Positions 21,981-64,000 of a DNA stretch of 64,000 nt are shown piece by piece. Below the pieces are notes generated by a model. The model saw nothing but the letters and a program-made list of their open reading frames with translations, did not search any database and was not told where the DNA came from. A program made the position numbers and the translations under genes. How positions within the stretch are numbered: the first letter of the stretch is position 1; every line of letters begins with the position of its first letter. The stretch spans positions 16,120,001 to 16,184,000 of the forward strand of contig NC_043017.1 of assembly GCF_006345805.1 (NCBI RefSeq), written 5' to 3'. This DNA comes from Octopus sinensis (taxonomy: Eukaryota).

Positions 21981-22459
21981 TAAAGTCAACGTCACGTTAC
22001 TGTTGACGCAGAGATTCTGACACCGCCTAATGAGAGACAGAGTCCTTGAAACAGAAAGACTTATAATAGAAGAGCAAAGGTCATACTGATTTCTTTTGTA
22101 CAGTGTGTATCAGTGCTTAATCTCTCCACCTATTCTTACATGGCATTAACGTAATGTTATAGCCCCAAATAATTCAAAATATATATGGACATTTGATCAG
22201 CAGATTTGGTGAAAAAAACCTTGCCATTAGTAATCGTGATGTACCATGTGGAGTATACATACGTACGTTATTACTAAGGGTTTATATCCTTTATATATAT
22301 ATATATTCATATACATACTTACTCACACAAATAAACACACACACATCTATACATATATAAATGTGTGTGTCTGTGTTACTGCTTCAACTGTAAGCTACCT
22401 GCAGTGTATATATACGTATATCATATAAATATAAATATATATATAATATATATATATAT

Positions 22460-22492
<33 letters not shown>

Positions 22493-22955
22493 TATGTATA
22501 TATATATTTATATGATATACGTATATATACACTGCAGGTAGCTTACAGTTGAAGCAGTAACACAGACACACACATTTATATATGTATAGATGTGTGTGTG
22601 TTTATTTGTGTGAGTAAGTATGTATATGAATATATATATATATAAAGGATATAAACCCTTAGTAATAACGTACGTATGTATACTCCACATGGTACATCAT
22701 GATTACTAATGGCAAGGTTTTTTTCACCAAATCTGCTGATCAAATGTCCATATAAATTTTGAATTATTTGGGGCTATAACATTACGTTAATGCCATGTAA
22801 GAATAGGTGGAGAGATTAAGCACTGATACACACTGTACAAAAGAAATCAGTATGACCTTTGCTCTTCTATTATAAGTCTTTCTGTTTCAAGGACTCTGTC
22901 TCTCATCAGGCGGTGTCAGAATCTCTGCGTCAACAGTAACGTGACGTTGACTTTA
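21981..22955. repeat. 450-bp inverted duplication (21981-22430 / 22506-22955) with 75-bp microsatellite spacer
   Basis: About 3 mismatches seen; identical 60-aa ORFs on opposite strands; degenerate CT(G/A)ATGA...GAAAC motif near the outer ends. Confidence 0.93.
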
Positions 22956-48089: not shown

Positions 48090-48503
48090 AAATAATAGTT
48101 ATCGCCATATTAATATGGCATTCTTATAAAAATAAGAATAAAGCTGTCCGCTTATTAGCTCCATGAGGCCATCGCCTTAAGTTAGCTATTTGATACACAA
48201 ACTGTATCCATATAACCTTCGAACAAGGGAGGTCAGTCGCTCCACACTACTTGATCGACAGCTACAGACGCGTTTCGGGGTATTGCCCCTTTTCAACGCT
48301 GCATTGAAAAGGGGCAATACCCCGAAACGCGTCTGTAGCTGCCGGTCAAGTAGTGTGGAGCGACTGACCTCCCTTGTTCGAAGGTTATATGGATACAGTT
48401 TGTGTATCAAATAGCTAACTTAAGGCGATGGCCTCATGGAGCTAATAAGCGGACAGCTTATTCTTATTTTTATAAGAATGCCATATTAATATGGCGATAA
48501 CTA

Positions 48504-48509
<6 letters not shown>
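48090..48509. repeat. ~420-bp nearly perfect palindrome centred at ~48300 (element extends left to ~48031)
   Basis: Identical 74-aa ORFs on opposite strands; almost no spacer. Confidence 0.95.
48298..48339 (+). ncRNA. Type I hammerhead with U3-A8 core (mirror copy 48261-48302 on -)
   Basis: GCTGCA-TTGAAAA-GGGG caata CCCC-GAAA-CGCG-TC-TGTAGC. Confidence 0.8.
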
Positions 48510-48906: not shown

Positions 48907-49540
48907 ATAATTTTTTTCTTTTGCCCTTTTTATAATCGTTTATAATTTTAACTGTAAAGGTATTTTAATATGCTGCCACATATTTTGATGGAATTTTTTT
49001 CTGTAAAAAAACTTCATCCTATATTAGTAGTAGACTTATTACAATTCGCTATAGGGACAGGTAACCACTATAAGCTGTAGTGGAGAACAGTTCACACGTG
49101 TGCTGAGGCTGACCAAAGAATTTTATTTTTAGATATATCTGGGGTACTTATATGTACTCATGATTTTTGCTTCGGCTTTTTTCCATGGGCGCATGTTAGT
49201 ATCTTATTTATATCTTTTCGTATTTTCTACTGAAGAGGAAAAAATCTATTATGAGATTAATTCCGAAATTGATTCAATATAGAAATAATGAACTTTAAAA
49301 AAAATTCTATCGGCCGGCTTTCCTCGATTTCAGCTCTTCGTGTTTTTTCTGTAGCGAGTAAATAATATGTGCAAATTGACGATTTAAAAGTCTGTCATCA
49401 GCATATTGGCATAAAAATAATTTTCTTTAGCCCTTATTTATTAGTTGTTTATAATTTTAACTGTAAAGGTATTTTAATATGCTGCCACAATTTTTGATGG
49501 AATTTTTTTCTGTAAAAAACATCATCCTATATTAGTAGTA
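48907..49540 (+). mobile_element. ~510-bp HHR-containing unit with ~125-bp terminal direct repeat
   Basis: 48907-49032 is repeated at 49417-49540; flanked by (TA)n. Confidence 0.8.
49224..49285 (+). ncRNA. Canonical-core type I hammerhead ribozyme
   Basis: TTTCTA-CTGAAGA-GGAA[aaAATCTattatgAGATTaa]TTCC-GAAA-TTGATTCAA-TA-TAGAAA. Confidence 0.85.
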
Positions 49541-50210: not shown

Positions 50211-50244
<34 letters not shown>

Positions 50245-50249
<5 letters not shown>

Positions 50250-51062
50250 CAATATAGGGTAGCAAAAAACTTCAAGAAAAAAAAGAAAAAATTCAAGAAA
50301 AATTTTCTGCAACCAGCGGTCAAGTGAGAAAATAGAAATTCACAGACTATATAATATATTCAACAAAATATTAAGGAAAGACCCTTACAGGTCATTCGAC
50401 TCACTTGAAAAGAGCAGCCAAAACTCAAACCGCAAAAATAGTAGTAATTCTGAAAGCTAAAGGAGAAATAAAAACGTTTATCCTTTTCAACTTTGTACCC
50501 TGCAAGGTTTCAACAATTTTTACGCAATCGAACTTAATTAAATTAAATTAAATCCGTTTACGATTGGTTTGTTTCATCAGCAAAGTCCCAAAAGAGAAGG
50601 CGAACATATACACACGAGGCGATACCACTGAAGCCCCGAGTATATATATCCTAATTTTTCGAAATCCAGCGTAACCGCGCCAACTACTCAGCAGCAAATA
50701 TAAACTGCTGATACAATTTCAGAATTAGTCAAAAATTATTAATTTATCAATATAGGGTAGCAAAAAAATTCAAGAAAAAATTTTCTGCAACCAGCGGTCA
50801 AGTGAGAAAATAGAAGTAGTCACAGACTATATAATATATTCAACAAAATATTATGGAAAGACCCTTACAGGTCATTCGACTCACTTGAAAGAGCAGCCAA
50901 AACTCAAACCGCAAAAATAGTAGTAATTCTGAAAGCTAAAGGAGAAATAAAAACGTTTATCCTTTTCAACTTTGTACCTTGCAAGGTTTCAACAATTTTT
51001 ACGCAATTGAACTTAATTAAATTAAATTAAATCCGTTTACGATTGGTTTGTTTCATCAGCAA
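50245..51062 (-). mobile_element. Partial tandem (~1.6 copies) of a ~480-500 bp non-coding unit, one HHR per unit
   Basis: 50245 aligns to 50743; HHRs at 50490-50586 and 50972-51062; (TA)n flanks. Confidence 0.88.
50490..50586 (-). ncRNA. Canonical-core type I hammerhead ribozyme
   Basis: ACTTTG-CTGATGA-AACAA[~50 nt]TTGTT-GAAA-CCTTGCAGGG-TA-CAAAGT. Confidence 0.85.
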
Positions 51063-51314
51063 TATATATAATATATACATTCAATAATGAGGGTGAAAAA
51101 ATTTTTAGATATTAATTCGATAATACCCTTATATTAACACCAAGCGACCTATCACAATAAACCAGGAGAGATACAATCCGTATATTGAGATCCCTCCGTA
51201 AATATAAGGATTCTGCAACTTTGAATTATGTTGAACTCTAGTGCTTAACATATTCAAAGTTGGCTCTCTTATATTACGGATATATCTATCTATATATTAT
51301 ATATATCTATATAT

Positions 51315-52404: not shown

Positions 52405-52665
52405 GCCTCCGTGCTGTGGGCACGTAACAAACACCATCCGATCGTGGCCGTTCGCCAGCCTCATCTGGCACCTGTGTCGGTGGCACATAAAATCACCCAC
52501 TACACTCTCGGAGTGGTTGGCGTTAGGAAGGGCATCCAGCTGTAGAAACACTGCCAGATCTGACTGACCTGGTGCAGCCTTCGGGCTCCCCAGACCCCAG
52601 TTGAACCGTCCAACCCATACTAGCATGGAAAGCGGACGTTAAATGATGATGATGATGATGATGAT
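52405..52665 (+). mobile_element. SINE 3' portion with RTE-type tail, nested in the hAT
   Basis: ggcgttaggaagggcatccagctgtagaaac...agcatggaaagcggacgttaaa(tga)n. Confidence 0.7.
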
Positions 52666-52699
52666 TATTTTTTTTTTTTTTTTAAGATCAGTTGAAATT

Positions 52700-54502
52700 A
52701 TGTCTCAACCAACTGCTAAGAAGGCAAAACTGAGGAACTACAAAGAAGATTTTATCATGTTTGGTTTTGTATCTGTAGACTCCAAACCTGTGTGTCTTGA
52801 ATGTGATGCCATCATGGCAAATCATTCCACGAAGAAAGTTAAGCTGGAACAGTACCAGAAATTAAGGCATCCATTATCTGTTGGTAAAAGTAGGAAATAT
52901 TTTGAGAATAAAAAGAAAATGCAGCCAATCAAACTACCCGACTTTGTAAAGAAGATGAATATTGAAAAAGCAAAGACATTCAAACCAAGTTATTTGGTCT
53001 CTGAAATTATTGCCAAGGTTACAGCACCTCAGATTTATGGTGAGAAACGTGTCAAGCCTGCCATGATCGCTTGTGCAAATGAGGTTCTGGGAAAAGATGC
53101 TGCATCTACTCTGAGTACAATTCCGTCTAATTTTGTTGAGGAGAAGGTTGTGGAAATTCTCCAAAAGACAAATTTTTCTATCCAGGTTGATTGATAGCAC
53201 AATTCATAACCAAGTTATCCTTCTGGTCTATGTCAAATTCATCCATGAAGATGATATAAGGGAAGAAATGTTATTCATTAAAAGTTTGTCTGAAACAACT
53301 AATGGAGAAGATATATTCAATGAAGTAATGCAGTATTTTAATGATAATAATATTCCTTTGGCAAATCTGATCAATATTGCATCAGATGGAGCTGCAGCCA
53401 TGACTGGAAAAGTGAAAGGCTTTGTTTCTAGAATGAAATCAGTTGCTCCTCACATTTTTTATATACATTGCATTATCTACAGGCAGCATTTGGTTGCTAA
53501 GAATATTGGAGGACAGATGGAAGAAGCACTCAGCACTGCCATACATGCAATTAACTTTGTCAAATCAAACTCAGTGAATAATAGATTTTTAATGCAACTC
53601 TGTGAAGATGAAAATTTAAAAACCCTATTGCTTCACACAGAAGTAAGATGGTTGTCAAAAGGCCTGAGGCTTGAAAGACTAGTGAATTGGTGGGAACCAT
53701 TAATCAACTTTCTCATGTTCAAGAGTCAGATAACTCATTTACAACTCCAAGAAGCAAGCTGATACAGCTACGAAAATTTTGGAAATACTTTCTGAGTTTA
53801 AATCAAAATTATTCTACTTGAGTGAAAATTTTAAAACAGTGAATCTACTTTACTTAGAGCTGCAAGGTAGAAAATCAGATTTGATCACCTGTTCTCAGAA
53901 GATAAAAGGGTATATGGGGAAGTTAAAATTTTGGAAAAAACCGTTTGAAAAAATAACTGGCATCATTTCAAAATTCCAACACCACCGTTCCTACATCAGA
54001 ACGCATGGCTGCATGCATTGCCCATCTTGAAGGTCTTCATGTAAACTTTGAGAGAAGATACAATGATTTATTAAAGATGGATTATCCATTCTGGTTTGTA
54101 GACCTAGAAAATTATGAGCCAGGAGATGGAAATCTTCAGGTGGCTGAAATGTTGTTGGATTTGAAAGAGAATATGAAACTGAGAAGAAGAGTTGAGAAGG
54201 AAGGGGTCTTTGCCTACATATCGATAAAGGGATCACACCCAGATATTTTTCGACATGTAGAAGAAAGCATCATTTCTTTCCCTGCCACATGGATGGTGGA
54301 ATCTGTATTTTCAGCTGTTGTAGAAATTCTAAGCAGAAAAAGAAATAAATTAGATGTCAACAGCAGAGGAACTATCAGACTCAGACTAAATGAGTTCATT
54401 AAAATTGATTATGATATCTTGAGTCAGAATGGATTAAAAAGGAAAGACTTTATGAGAAATGATTTTGATATCTCATGTTTATCTTTGTTTATTAAATTTT
54501 AA
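52700..54502 (+). pseudogene. Buster-type (SCAND3/ZBED8-like) transposase, frameshifted
   Basis: BED-like PVCLEC, FSIQVD, IASDGAAAMTG, HCIIYRQHL, LLLHTEVRWLSKG, FPATWMVESVFS. Confidence 0.92.
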
Positions 54503-58294: not shown

Positions 58295-58329
58295 TATATA
58301 ATACTTATTTTAAGCAGCACAGAATTCAA

Positions 58330-58378
58330 CAAAATCTGTTACTCTGAGTTTCTCGTGCCGTTCATCAGACAGTTTTTG
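58330..58378 (-). ncRNA. Type I hammerhead, same family as 56203
   Basis: CAAAAACTGT-CTGATGA-ACGGCACGA-GAAA-CTCAGAG-TA-ACAGATTTTG; an ~80-bp insert in (TA)n. Confidence 0.75.
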
Positions 58379-58389
58379 CTATATATATA

Positions 58390-58433
<44 letters not shown>

Positions 58434-59359
58434 AAACAAGTCAAAAATAGAAAATGCTAAAATAATTTTATAGTGAATCTTTCAGTACCGGTTTCGGTCA
58501 TTTTGAGACCTTTTCAACTGTAACGATTAAATAATTAAATTTAGAAAAATTAGAAGAAAAGTTTTTTTAAAGGAATATTTCTATAGTAGTGTTCAGATAT
58601 AAGTGGCATTCTGCCTTTCTCTGACTCCCTTGTTTGCACTTGTGTGTTCGAGGTCGTTGTGAGTTCTTGGTAGGGTAGGAGAAGAAGAAGGCTGATGTGG
58701 AGAGGGGGTGGGAGTGGGGAAATCTGGGAGTGCCCTGATGGTCGTATTTTGAACTAAAATCTCTCCAACGCTGGGAGAAAAGCGCCATTTGGTTCTCAGA
58801 CTATGAAGCCGTCTTTCAAACAGAGCACGCCTCCAACAACCCTTTCCAGAAAATAAGAAAACCAAAACAACACCCAAACACCGATACACACCTGTCTAAA
58901 AATCGGAACCTTCACTACTTTCAAAAAAAGAATACAGGACCTAACCCTAACTCTGTAAGCAGCCAGCGATACAATATCAGGAATACCCCCACTTCAAGCA
59001 GAGAAAGGATAAATCAACACCCACAGCATAGACACTGCAACCTTATCCCCACCCAAAAGAGTTACCAACGAAATCTCCGTCCCATCAACCGGTTAAACAA
59101 CCATGCACAACAAACCCACACCTCTTACAATGATTACTAACGAAGGCCTCCTGGAACACCACACCCGAATATGGGATATCGGGATGTTCTCCTCAATACT
59201 GCCCCAAGAACACACACCATAAATCACAACAGGAGACCCCACATCAACAAAGAACAACTATATAATAGCTACCGTCCCAACCACTGCATTCATTTTTTAG
59301 ACCCAATACGCAAACACAGAGACACAAGATAGCACCAAACAAGCAGGAGGAACCAAAAG

Positions 59360-61305
59360 TAATAAAAATTATCAATCTAACTCACAAGGAACTAACAGCA
59401 AACCAAATAAACATACTTTCCAAAGGACTCAAGTTTACACCCACCCCACATCACCCCAACTACAACGAAATGAAAGAAGACATCGCAGAATTCTGCAGAA
59501 AATTAAGACTTACTGAGGAGCTATACGATAAATACAACGAGGACGAATCGTTAGCCAGAAATAGGAGTAACTACACCCCTTCGAAAGGTAAGAACAAAAC
59601 ACTTGATGATTTCTGTGACCACATATCTAATTACCCATATCAACATATGCACAAACAAAAATACAAACCAAACTTCAGCAAAAAAGAATGGGCTGAGTTG
59701 AACAAATTAAAACAAGATAAAACAATAACAATCAAAGAGGCCGATAAAGGGAGTGCTGTTGTCTTCATGGATACGACATTTTACATAACTTTGGTACTTT
59801 CTATGCTGGAAGACACAACATACTATGAAAAGGCACAAAACTACAGTCAACAAAAAATAATGAGGGAACTAAAATCCATATTAAACCCATACAAAGCAGG
59901 GCTCACCGACAAAGAATATGATTATATGACCAATTTCACAAGTAAAACCAGCCAATTCTACGGTATACCTAAGATCCACAAAAGTGAACAAATAAGCAAC
60001 GCATGCAAGATAGCTACAGACAAAATAATTAAAGTCCCTAATCCTAATGACCTCAAATTGAGACCCATAATAGCAGGTCCCGCATGCGAAACCCACCGCC
60101 TCAGTAACTTTTTAGACACCCTGTTAAAACCACTCCTCAAACATGTCAAAAGCTATATAAGGGACGACTTAGATATGCTCAATCACCTACCGAATACTAT
60201 AAACAAAAACACCATACTGGTATCCTTCGATGTAGTCAACCTCTACTCCAATATCCCCCACAGAGGCAATCCAATTCTGGCTAGAGAATCACGCCAACGA
60301 ACTACCACACCGCATCAAAAAAGAATTCGTGATAGAAGGGGTTAAATTCATCCTGGAAAATAACTTCTTCGCCTTCAATGACAACTTCTACCGACAAAAA
60401 TCGGGGACTGCGATGGGTACACGAATGGCCCCCTCTTTTGCCAACCTAGTCATAGGATATCTAGAGATCAGTCTGTATCGTAAGGTTCTAGAAAGATATG
60501 GCAGCCCTTTCTCCATCTACATAGAAAACAACTGGAAGAGATATCTAGATGACTGTTTCATTCTTTGGCATAAAAATATAGAAAAACTCATAGAATTCCA
60601 GGAAATTTTAAACGGACTGGACGTAAACAGTCTTCAACACAGAAGCCGACAGTAAAAATCAAAGAAAAACTTACAACCAAAAGCCTTACCATACATCTCC
60701 ACACACAACCCTCTCAATAACGAAGCCTTCGGCACCATCCTCCACAACATACCCCTCCTAAAAAAAGACCACAGAATGAACACAATCCTCCAAACACACA
60801 CGATCATAAAAAGCAAAAGACAGCCTAGATCCATGAAAAGTCTCCTAACACAAGCCCGAATTCACTCTTCAACACAGAAGCCGACAGTAAAAAAAGGTGG
60901 AAGACCCAATTGCGGGATATGCGACTATCTAATTGAGGGATCAGAGTTCTCCTTCAAACAGGGACAACGGTTTACAGTGAAAAGCAACTTCACATGTGCT
61001 TCGGAGAACCTAATATACTCACTAACCTGCTCCGGGTGTCAAGAGCAGTACATAGGCCAAACAAAAAATAGTTTGCGTAAACGAATGGCCCTGCACAGAT
61101 CCCAGATAAAAATTCCCCAAAACAGAAAAAATAGCTTTTAGCCAACACATGGATACTTGCGCCAAAAAAAAAACACCAAGCTTCAGGATTTTCCCCCCTC
61201 TACCAATTTAGGGACGATACAACCTCGAGACAACGAATAAGTAAAGAAAATCTCTTTATTACAAAATACAGGCCACTTCTTAACGGGTCTACGACAAACA
61301 ATTAA
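59360..61305 (+). pseudogene. PLE RT plus GIY-YIG polyprotein, frameshifted, with RT thumb deletion
   Basis: ORFs 59470-60345, 60329-60655 and 60776-61141. Confidence 0.9.
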
Positions 61306-61967
61306 TATACCTCAAACTTAGAATAAAAGAAATATATACACACACAAATATTACATTCCATAGAATCCATTACTAATCAGCCCCATCACAGCTATACTTC
61401 ACCCTTCTCCCTTCTCTGTTTTTTTCTTCCTCTTCTTCTTCTTCATCATCATTATCATCATCATCGTCGTCATCATCATCACCACCATCATCATCATCAT
61501 CATCTTCTCCTTCTCCTTCCTTCTTCTTCTTCTTCTTCTTCTCTTCTTCTTCTTCTTCTTCTTCTTCTTCTTCTTTTCATCATCATATCATCAACATCGT
61601 CATCTTCTTCTTCTTCTTCTACTTCTCCACCTTCTACCCCTTAACCTTGTCACTAATGTATTTTAGTATAACGCCTACGCAAATTCCATAAACAATTCCT
61701 GAATTGGACTGCGACTGCTGGCCGCCACTGACCATTCAAAATACGACCATCAGGGCACTCCCAGATTTCCCCACTCCCACCCCCTCTCCACATCAGCCTT
61801 CTTCTTCTCCTACCCTACCAAGAACTCACAACGACCTCGAACACACAAGTGCAAACAAGGGAGTCAGAGAAAGGCAGAATGCCACTTATATCTGAACACT
61901 ACTATAGAAATATTCCTTTAAAAAAACTTTTCTTCTAATTTTTCTAAATTTAATTATTTAATCGTTA

Positions 61968-62005
61968 CAGTTGAAAAGGTCTCAAAATGACCGAAACCGG
62001 TACTG
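61968..62005 (+). ncRNA. Minimal type I hammerhead with U3-A8 core (mirror copy 58483-58520 on -)
   Basis: CAG-TTGAAAA-GGTC tcaaaat GACC-GAAA-CCGG-TA-CTG in the pLTR. Confidence 0.8.
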
Positions 62006-62112
62006 AAAGATTCACTATAAAATTATTTTAGCATTTTCTATTTTTGACTTGTTTTTTCATATATATCAACTCGTGTGTTCCTTTCCACCCTTATACATAT
62101 ATATATATATAT

Positions 62113-64000
62113 AACGGGAAGCTTTATGAAAATAAACAAAAGACGAAGGCAGGTGGAAAACAAACGAACAATTGTATTAGTATGGCGCTCAGGAAATATA
62201 AATAAAACAAGTCTTTAACGTTTCGAGCCTACACTCTTCAACAGAAAGATACACAGAGAGAGAAAAACACAGAAAGAAGGAGAGAAAAAAAATGCGTGCA
62301 GTAGCTAACGAATCAAACATGGCGATCTGATTTCGGCCAGAGGTCAAAGATCAAACATGAGACGCGAGAGCGAAATAAGGGATAGAGAAAATAGGTTGAT
62401 AAAAGGGTTGAGGGACCAGCTAAAAGTGCGTGGGAGGGGTCTGGATGTGTGTATGTATAGGGTTGGTGTATGTATTAGTATGTATAAGGGTGTGGTGTGT
62501 GTGTGTGTGTGTGTGTATGAGAGAGTATTAGTGCGTAAGATTGGTCTGGACGTGCGTATGTATGGGGTTGGTGTATGTATTAGTATGTATTAGTATGTAT
62601 TAGTACGTATTGGTATGTATAGGTGTGTGTGTGTGTGTGTGAGTGAGAGAGTATAAGTGCGTATGCGGGGTCTGGACGTGTGTATGTATAGGGTTGGTGT
62701 AAGTATTAGTATGTACTAGTATGTATTAGTACGTATTAGTATGTATTAGTTGGTGTGTGTATTAGTATGGCACATCATATGTGATGTGATGTGTAAAGTC
62801 ATGTGGTGTAGTGAGGAGAAGGGGGGAGGGGAGAAGAGGGGGGGAGGAGGGGAGGGGAAGAAGAGGGGGAGGAGAAGGGGGAAGAGGAGACGATGGGGGA
62901 GAAGGAAGGTGAGGAGGGGGATGAAGGAGGAAAGAGGGGAGGGGGAGAGAGGAGAGAGGGGAGAGAGAGAAGGGAGGAGGAGTGAGGGGGACAGAGGGAA
63001 AGGGGAAGAGGGAGGGAGAAAGAGGGAAGAAGGGAAGGGGAGTAGGGGTGAAAGGATGAAGGACTGAAGAAGTAGGGGTCGGGGGGAGAAAGAGGAGAAA
63101 GGATAGGTGAGGAGGGGGGAGAGGGGGGGTTAGATGAGGAGGGGGGGGAGAGTTGAGACCAAATGGCGTATAAGAGCGAAGAGAGAAGATTAATTCCTGT
63201 TCACGGCGCGCAAACGGGAATCCGGATGGCCTCTGTGTAAGGACAAACCGAACACAGATAGGTGTTGCAAGGAGTGACCGGTGGAGCGGAAATGGCGTGA
63301 GACCGCGTGTGTCGTTCGCAAGGTGGATGTCACGAAGGTGTTCCGCGAACCGGTCAGCCAAGCGGCGTCCCGTTTGTCCGATGTACAAGGAATTGCAGAG
63401 AGAGCAAGAGATGCAATAGATAATATTGCTGGAGGTGCAGGTGAAGGAGTGGATGATGGGATAGGGTCGATGGTGGGTGCTAGTGAGGCGGGTGGTGTGT
63501 TGGAGAGGTAAGGGCAAGTGCGGCAACGTGGGCGGGAGCAGGGGAACGAGCCGGTTGGAGGTAGGGTCAGGGAAGGAGCTATGGACCAAAAGGTCTCGAA
63601 GGTTGTGGGCTCGTTTGAAAGAGGGGAGGGGTCGGTTAGGGAAGAGGTGTGAAGTGGACGGGTCGGACTGGAGATGACGGAAAGCTCGAAGAATGGTGCG
63701 TTGGAGACGTAGGGTCGTGGGGAAAAGGGAGGCGGGAGACTACAGGGCGGGTTCGGGGAGAGAGAGCAGATACACGGTCCACGGACCGTGCTCTGGCAAG
63801 GGCGGTGTGGATAGTGGTGAGGGGGTATCCACGTAGGGTGAAGTGGTGAGCCATACGTTGAGACTGTGTCTCAAAGTCATGGTCGTCACTACAGAGCCTA
63901 CGTAGACGGAGGAATTGGGAATAGGGGATGGAAAGCTTGGTGTGTTCTGGGTGGGAGGAAGAGAGTTGAGGTATGAGTGTGAGTCTGTGTGTTTGTAGTG
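62113..64000 (-). mobile_element. Second Neptune-type PLE (RT thumb, linker, GIY-YIG, 3' terminus); runs off the window
   Basis: KLSIPYSQFLRLRRLCS, RGYP, CSRPRCRTC, SSNIIYCISCSLCNSLYIGQTGRRLADRFAEH, PFGLN. Confidence 0.93.
62212..62249 (-). ncRNA. Minimal hammerhead variant (CUGUUGA)
   Basis: TCTTT-CTGTTGA-A-GAG tgtagg CTC-GAAA-CG-TT-AAAGA in the PLE 3' terminus. Confidence 0.7.

Follow-up and report, generated by a model that had tools for sequence, protein, structure and literature searches.

The closest described systems are the metazoan non-LTR retrozymes and the Penelope-like elements (PLEs) that encode an endonuclease. Retrozyme circular RNAs have been demonstrated in coral, mussel and axolotl, and their mobilisation by PLEs has been proposed (PMC7229834); the main text of that paper, in the part available, makes no mention of octopus, cephalopod or inverted. 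A recent preprint (Li et al., 10.64898/2026.07.22.740005) gives retrozyme consensus lengths of 51-972 bp, relates retrozymes to the pLTRs of PLEs and reports that 8 of 9 Xenopus retrozyme dimers were uncleaved; local amplification is discussed and the word 'tail' is absent in the accessible portion of its text. Among PLEs, the tail is made by two internal reverse transcriptase (RT) start sites, and both strands are cut and extended (PMC11167929). That a PLE RT mobilises retrozymes through circular RNA, and that circles lie behind PLE copies of more than unit length, has so far been proposed and not shown in the parts of this literature available to us.

The DNA analysed here is a stretch of 64,000 nucleotides from Octopus sinensis (the window), which carries an ORF-less insertion of 819 bp at 50244..51062 on the minus strand. 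The insertion consists of a full 479-nt unit (51062-50584, unit position 1 being 51062) and a terminal partial unit of 340 bp (50583-50244) that covers unit positions 1-321 and stops at the second of two 3′ ends fixed in its family, family A; it has no inverted arm. The preliminary description had put the insertion at about 1.6 ORF-less copies within (TA)n, with two hammerhead ribozymes on the same strand about 479 nt apart, and both statements were borne out: the insertion amounts to 1.67-1.71 units, its longest ATG-started frame is 19 aa, TA lies on both sides, and the two minus-strand cores begin at 51059 and 50580. The overlapping parts of the two units are 91.8% identical, indels included, with 4 substitutions in 249 unmasked columns. 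A (TA)n target tract adjoins the 3′ end (50214..50243, no strand assigned) and a shorter TA tract the 5′ end (51063-51077); between these tracts no target-site duplication is readable. At its 5′ side the insertion is cut short within stem I of the first ribozyme, with three bases left ahead of the first CUGAUGA. The 86 nt that separate the two fixed 3′ ends of the family (unit 235 and 321), the 'tail', lie at 50742..50827 on the minus strand, and the same region occurs a second time at about 50244-50347. The window copy is very probably a non-LTR retrozyme, that is, a non-autonomous PLE.

Scanned for structure over its full length, the window shows three hammerhead-like motifs, at 51059(-), 50580(-) and, unrelated to these, 49230(+). 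The two minus-strand motifs are type I cores of the form CUGAUGA...GAAA...GUA, with predicted cuts after GUA (unit 88|89) at 50975|50974 and 50496|50495, which would release a 479-nt monomer (50496..50974). The downstream hammerhead (50489..50587, minus strand) is complete, with a 7-bp stem I, a stem II arm of about 62 nt and a 4-bp stem III with a UGCA loop. In the upstream one (50968..51062, minus strand) stem III is a palindromic variant. The canonical core first described for each unit is indeed intact in both, but the upstream ribozyme keeps only 3 bp of stem I. The palindromic stem III noted at the same time is likewise present in the upstream copy, but as a minority variant: ACCTTGCAAGGT, the perfect palindrome, occurs in 1 of 51 exact pattern matches and ACCTTGCAGGGT in the other 50. 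Among the loci examined, ACCTTGCAAGGT recurs in two more (L015 and L053), and other subfamilies, like a sister family, B, often have perfect stem III palindromes. The loop-3 tetramer UGCA is invariant and itself palindromic, as is loop 3 in ribozymes proposed to work as dimers (PMC4209133). Pair 10.1-11.1 is A-U, G-U or unpaired instead of G-C, and at the Rfam gathering threshold the window copy's hammerheads gave no match.

Folding predictions differ between the two ribozymes. Stem I pair probabilities are about 0 for the upstream one; for the downstream one, given a 116-nt context, a three-way junction is predicted whose stem I probabilities are 0.7-0.85, while in a 107-nt context an alternative fold is preferred over the hammerhead. 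Within the full read-through transcript each cis hammerhead fold is predicted to cost 10-11 kcal/mol; if instead the downstream core attacks the upstream site by way of a swapped, near-palindromic stem III, the predicted fold lies 1.2 kcal/mol above the minimum free energy. Because the upstream ribozyme is truncated, double cleavage of the window copy would need this swapped stem III; it is possible on these models, though not via two independent ribozymes. The monomer folded as a circle is predicted at -128 kcal/mol (z = -6.7 against 60 shuffles), and in this fold a hairpin at unit 91-131, directly 3′ of the cut (50932..50972, minus strand), sequesters the 3′ strand of stem I, a predicted means of shielding a circle. 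The same hairpin is the family's hotspot for 5′ breakpoints and inversion junctions.

Nine natural units (66-99% identity) agree at each of the 13 core positions, as against 42% of the rest, and N7 and H17 vary freely. When 15 distinct hammerhead motifs chosen from the table of folded motifs were compared, pairing holds in 95.9% of cells, and in 8 of 13 pairs both partners change, a result to be read with the relatedness of the motifs in mind. None of 500 shuffles matched the observed pairing, cell or covariation values, and in slid controls pairing fell to 36-42%; two measures that count pairs or types did not rise above the shuffles (156/500 and 456/500). Judged from sequence, the hammerhead motifs are not chance: core and stems are conserved and covary, the atypical pair 10.1-11.1 apart. 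A possible intron in the unit (GTGAGT...TTGCAG) was discarded, as it is not conserved in families B or C.

A search of the source genome (2.72 Gb) with the unit gave 113 matches, with 40 of 2007 candidates scored, and two exact-motif searches counted 118 and 136 family-A instances, the first 100 of each being listed. From these a sample of 128 non-redundant loci with flanks of 1.5-5 kb was assembled. Head-to-tail 479-nt units stand in tandem at many of the loci, each unit with a hammerhead, and partial tandems with an inverted 5′ arm and 5′ truncation are found across the family. There are two fixed 3′ ends about 86 nt apart, downstream of the hammerhead. The end at unit 235 and the end at unit 321 occupy opposite inverted arms in 58/128 loci; 34 loci, of the window copy's type, have the unit 321 end alone, 17 have the unit 235 end alone and 19 have other ends. 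Nearly all flanks printed for these loci are (TA)n. Fixed ends, inverted arms and (TA)n targets are typical of Penelope retrotransposons.

No RT or endonuclease ORF is joined to the element in any of the 128 loci within the flanks examined, in agreement with the expectation that copies would never be attached to RT frames. A tblastn search with four pieces of PLE protein encoded in the window located PLE ORF fragments near ten loci, none continuous with the element. An RT fragment at L036/L083 is separated from it by a TA tract, an endonuclease fragment 52 nt past the 3′ end in L067 is preceded by a TA-rich spacer, and a motif match in L232 sits in the flank. Nor are the homologues all pLTRs of truncated coding PLEs, for which the period would be several kb rather than 479 nt and which the absence of joined ORFs in the 128 loci also speaks against; with tandem 479-nt units at many loci, the retrozyme-like character first proposed is upheld. 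Free circular permutation of the genomic copies, a pattern also looked for, is not seen: the 3′ ends fall at two fixed sites.

Two sister families share this architecture. Family B has a unit of about 473 nt and 824 exact motif matches; family C, reached via the ribozyme pattern (1187 matches), has a unit of about 485 nt and 1005 matches; A, B and C are mutually 66-74% identical. An unrelated family, D, has a 510-nt hammerhead unit 700 bp upstream of the insertion in the window, where it forms a partial tandem of about 1.2 copies (48914-49540, plus strand) with its ribozyme at 49230. Its two ends are 87 nt apart; in families B, C and D the spacing is about 84-105 nt, and in all four families end 2 is preceded by CCTA(T/A)ATT. 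Family D is also dispersed, with inverted arms in (TA)n. Another hammerhead type with a long stem II and a palindromic stem III was seen at L085:99 on the plus strand and may represent a fifth family.

Compared with the metazoan non-LTR retrozymes, as far as the accessible parts of PMC7229834 and 10.64898/2026.07.22.740005 describe them, the octopus families have in common ORF-less, low-GC tandem units with a type I hammerhead each, a highly structured predicted monomer and coexistence with coding PLEs. They differ in unit length (470-510 nt against about 170-400 nt for the described invertebrate retrozyme circRNAs), in the stem II arm of about 62 nt and in the non-G-C first pair; those parts say nothing of paired fixed 3′ ends, inverted arms or (TA)n targeting for retrozymes, and they describe retrozyme circles, whereas the circle considered here is a predicted one. 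With the endonuclease-bearing PLEs (Penelope/Poseidon, Neptune and Naiad; PMC8557442, PMC11167929 and PMC4209133, each in part) they share partial tandems, 5′ truncation, an inverted 5′ arm, an optional tail from two RT starts downstream of the hammerhead, AT-rich or (TA)n targets and a palindromic loop 3; unlike them they have no ORF, and their tail is about 86 nt rather than 30-40 nt. Stem III is of 4 bp, in contrast to the minimal TTGA-core variants of those coding PLEs that were inspected in this genome. Chlamys elements such as MRC1 are likewise non-autonomous PLEs with pLTRs and multicopy head-to-tail insertions; according to the sections of PMC8557442 available, however, Chlamys and Naiad are without canonical hammerheads, which are present here, and their 3′ ends are similar to those of their partners, whereas no similarity to a partner was found here. 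Our search of the open literature found no paper describing these families or the variation test below; subscription literature and Repbase/Dfam lay outside that search, so the families may already be catalogued.

The origin of the tandems was approached through variation within and between loci. In 20 family-B arrays, picked for having several units, 97 variants are singletons, and none of 83 variable columns with at least 4 units shows a subset common to at least 2 units; stepwise local duplication in a simple simulation predicts 19-32% shared variants. Nine locus-private variants, private within the sample, are fixed in all 3-6 units, seven occurring on both arms; another 2, making 11 private variants in all, are each absent from one unit. 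Rank-specific variants common to loci number 0 in 78 events. Family A was tested by projection, the MAFFT alignment having kept only 149 columns; the test set aside two composite loci, L102 and L183, as well as the second local duplicates of L044 and L070. Here 11 private variants are fixed throughout the overlapping segments, 10 of these on both arms, and 85 rank events gave 3 same-rank and 3 other-rank against 4 crossed. The penultimate units of the window copy and L002 both have C at about unit 247, a site masked in the rank test. Long family-A arrays (L025, L047, L063 and L066) carry subset- or arm-specific variants. A further 20 regions were picked for length, of which 17, two of them one locus, were analysable; they hold 105 variants, 92 singletons and 13 shared, the latter in 6 loci and including an 8-unit periodicity in a 20-unit arm and an adjacent pair in L295. 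Shared variants of this kind in long arrays indicate that later local duplication does occur. The 20-unit arm belongs to a family-B insertion of about 10.5 kb (L288/L289, G000:C5:8524300-8536500) with 8-unit periodic variants and both fixed ends intact.

As far as this variation can tell, most insertions arose by repeated copying of one unit-length template, and the earlier proposal of copying past unit length from a single monomer is sustained by within-locus variation in the sister families, with no shared column among the 83 in family B. The cut site is read through exactly in 115 of 126 family-A cases, the remainder having small changes, and in family B all 83 are one of three family variants; an anchor-based count of scars was set aside, being confounded by subfamily length variants. 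Scar-free junctions are not specific to a circle, since young homogeneous linear multimers, or homologous jumps along an RNA with terminal redundancy, would also leave none. A circle is the simplest unit-length template, and a circular one is reasonably likely. It is not needed for the non-integer copy number that it had been invoked to explain: a fixed 3′ start at unit 321 and random 5′ truncation suffice.

We consider it rather probable that the element is a retrozyme with PLE insertion anatomy, moved in trans by a Penelope-type RT with GIY-YIG endonuclease that copies a self-cleaved, re-ligated 479-nt RNA circle. Tandem copies would be transcribed by read-through, and, as its conservation suggests, the hammerhead would cut after GUA (unit 88), in cis or via a swap of the palindromic stem III. 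Ligation would then give a circle in which the predicted hairpin at 91-131 conceals stem I. Both (TA)n strands would be nicked, with priming at unit 235 on one and unit 321 on the other; the fixed ends are observed and the enzymology is drawn by analogy to Anolis Poseidon. The RT would pass the old cut for one to many rounds, the read-through being observed and the circle presumed, after which two cDNAs would be joined head-to-head, often at the 91-131 quasi-palindrome, or, as in the window copy, a single cDNA would be captured by a TA flank; these structures are seen in the genome and their chemistry is conjectural. Local unequal crossover later lengthened some arrays, as their shared variants show. 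The cleavage step is weakened by the truncated upstream ribozyme, the 10-11 kcal/mol of the cis folds and the context-dependent downstream fold.

Breakpoints near the cut bear on whether the template was a circle. In family A, to which these figures apply because the family-B motif caught mainly long arrays, unit 89-129 holds the ends of 44 of 110 motif instances and unit 49-88 those of 4 of 66; arms within a locus are non-independent, and the counts involve 33 of 74 loci. Breakpoint rates per nt are 0.0099 in the hotspot and 0.0008-0.0044 elsewhere. First-pass arms stop at 89-129 in 26/81 and 25/72 cases, so many templates were possibly linear; later passes stop there in 11/30, mostly at inversion junctions. 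Self-complementarity as the sole cause was rejected, since over 12 windows of the unit no correlation was found (Spearman -0.22 and -0.25). Nevertheless 89-128 forms the strongest hairpin of the windows compared, and in 23/72 two-arm loci both ends lie within 85-135, mostly symmetric about unit 110, so that cleavage and hairpin are inseparable here: run-off from cleaved RNA and hairpin-mediated joining each fit the pile-up.

This pile-up with its sharp edge, present in later passes too, counts in favour of a linear template, be it an uncleaved multimer, a terminally redundant transcript or a cleaved monomer, with the RT jumping from the 5′ to the 3′ end by homology and the role of the ribozyme limited to 5′ end trimming. 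Poseidon TPRT in vitro used unprocessed RNA and cleavage was dispensable, according to the part of PMC11167929 available, and alleles are mixed within some loci. End-to-end jumps at the cut should, however, leave scars, and there are almost none; heterogeneous masters should transmit rank-specific or mirror variants, which family B lacks in all 78 events; and the 20-unit arm of L288 would require many faithful rounds or later duplication. We regard a linear template as unlikely on balance. The fuller reading of the arrays as a genomic record of rolling-circle TPRT, in which a hammerhead-made circle is copied at both nicked (TA)n strands from starts 86 nt apart into head-to-head cDNAs, is one that we put forward tentatively.

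Amplification of solo pLTR remnants of a coding PLE as a local minisatellite by unequal crossover, the route of Li et al. 2026, is very improbable. It would account for the adjacent or 8-unit periodic shared variants in L288, L295 and L296 and for PLE ORF fragments close to a few loci, but those fragments stand behind TA tracts or 0.6-4 kb off, and none of 30 GIY-YIG loci matches the units in nucleotide sequence. Each of the two inverted arms holds several units, the arms stop at the two fixed sites, and variation is star-like in 20/20 of the first arrays where 19-32% sharing is expected. Rolling-circle DNA synthesis on an excised unit, with the ribozyme as a passenger, would equally give identical units and a clean junction, but it is scarcely credible given a core and stems constrained across families of 66-70% identity, ends and targets that fit PLE TPRT, and breakpoints that follow the RNA cut site or the RNA-sense hairpin.

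If the rolling-circle reading is true, the breakpoints gathered at the cut would be a trace left in vivo by ribozyme cleavage during the PLE cycle, and one mechanism would cover PLE partial tandems, inverted pLTRs and retrozyme arrays. Whereas the 2026 preprint, in its available portion, favours local satellite amplification, within-locus variation here favours repeated copying of one monomer, and the ORF-less units bear the PLE insertion signature in full. Coding PLEs with a CxxxxCxxC linker are abundant in the genome, several with open frames of about 780 aa, and by the description in the accessible part of PMC8557442 they appear to be of Neptune/Nematis type; they have (TA)n ends, their ribozymes are minimal, and the tails observed measure about 25-40 nt. 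Young copies with 781-aa open frames lie at G000:C1:207477583, C3:65736423, C6:12733272, C6:12759897 and C19:35627265 and are candidates for an active RT and endonuclease in the genome. Units A-C gave no nucleotide match in the 30 of 147 GIY-YIG loci compared (150 of 5029 candidates scored). The young coding PLEs, together with the 479-nt template, make the question of circle or linear template testable in vitro. Four sequencing runs, all of them contigs, were compared with the element; a 455-nt contig from one, run X1, presumed to be RNA, covers 50463-50917 across the cut with 2 differences and is compatible alike with circle, precursor and DNA.

Other elements were found in the window. Three long frames at 52643-54502 on the plus strand, which gave no Pfam match, resemble what we take to be a broken hAT/SPIN-like DNA transposase. 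A frameshifted coding PLE with RT, GIY-YIG and CxxxxCxxC linker lies at 58422-62066; its inverted terminal arms measure 332 nt and its tail about 35 nt, at about 61977 it bears a minimal hammerhead variant whose core reads TTGAAAA, and it has no sequence in common with the 479-nt unit. At 58320-58380 (minus strand) lies the end of another PLE, in which a minimal hammerhead-like motif was recognised by eye, and a further GIY-YIG fragment lies at 62762-63739 (minus strand). Near-perfect inverted repeats at 48090-48509 (arms of about 210 nt, 1 nt between them) and 21981-22955 (464-nt arms) are probably head-to-head PLE remnants. Adjoining the retrozyme, between TA tracts, is a short repeat with internal inverted arms (51078-51285), which shows high depth in run X8 and is probably another PLE-type remnant.
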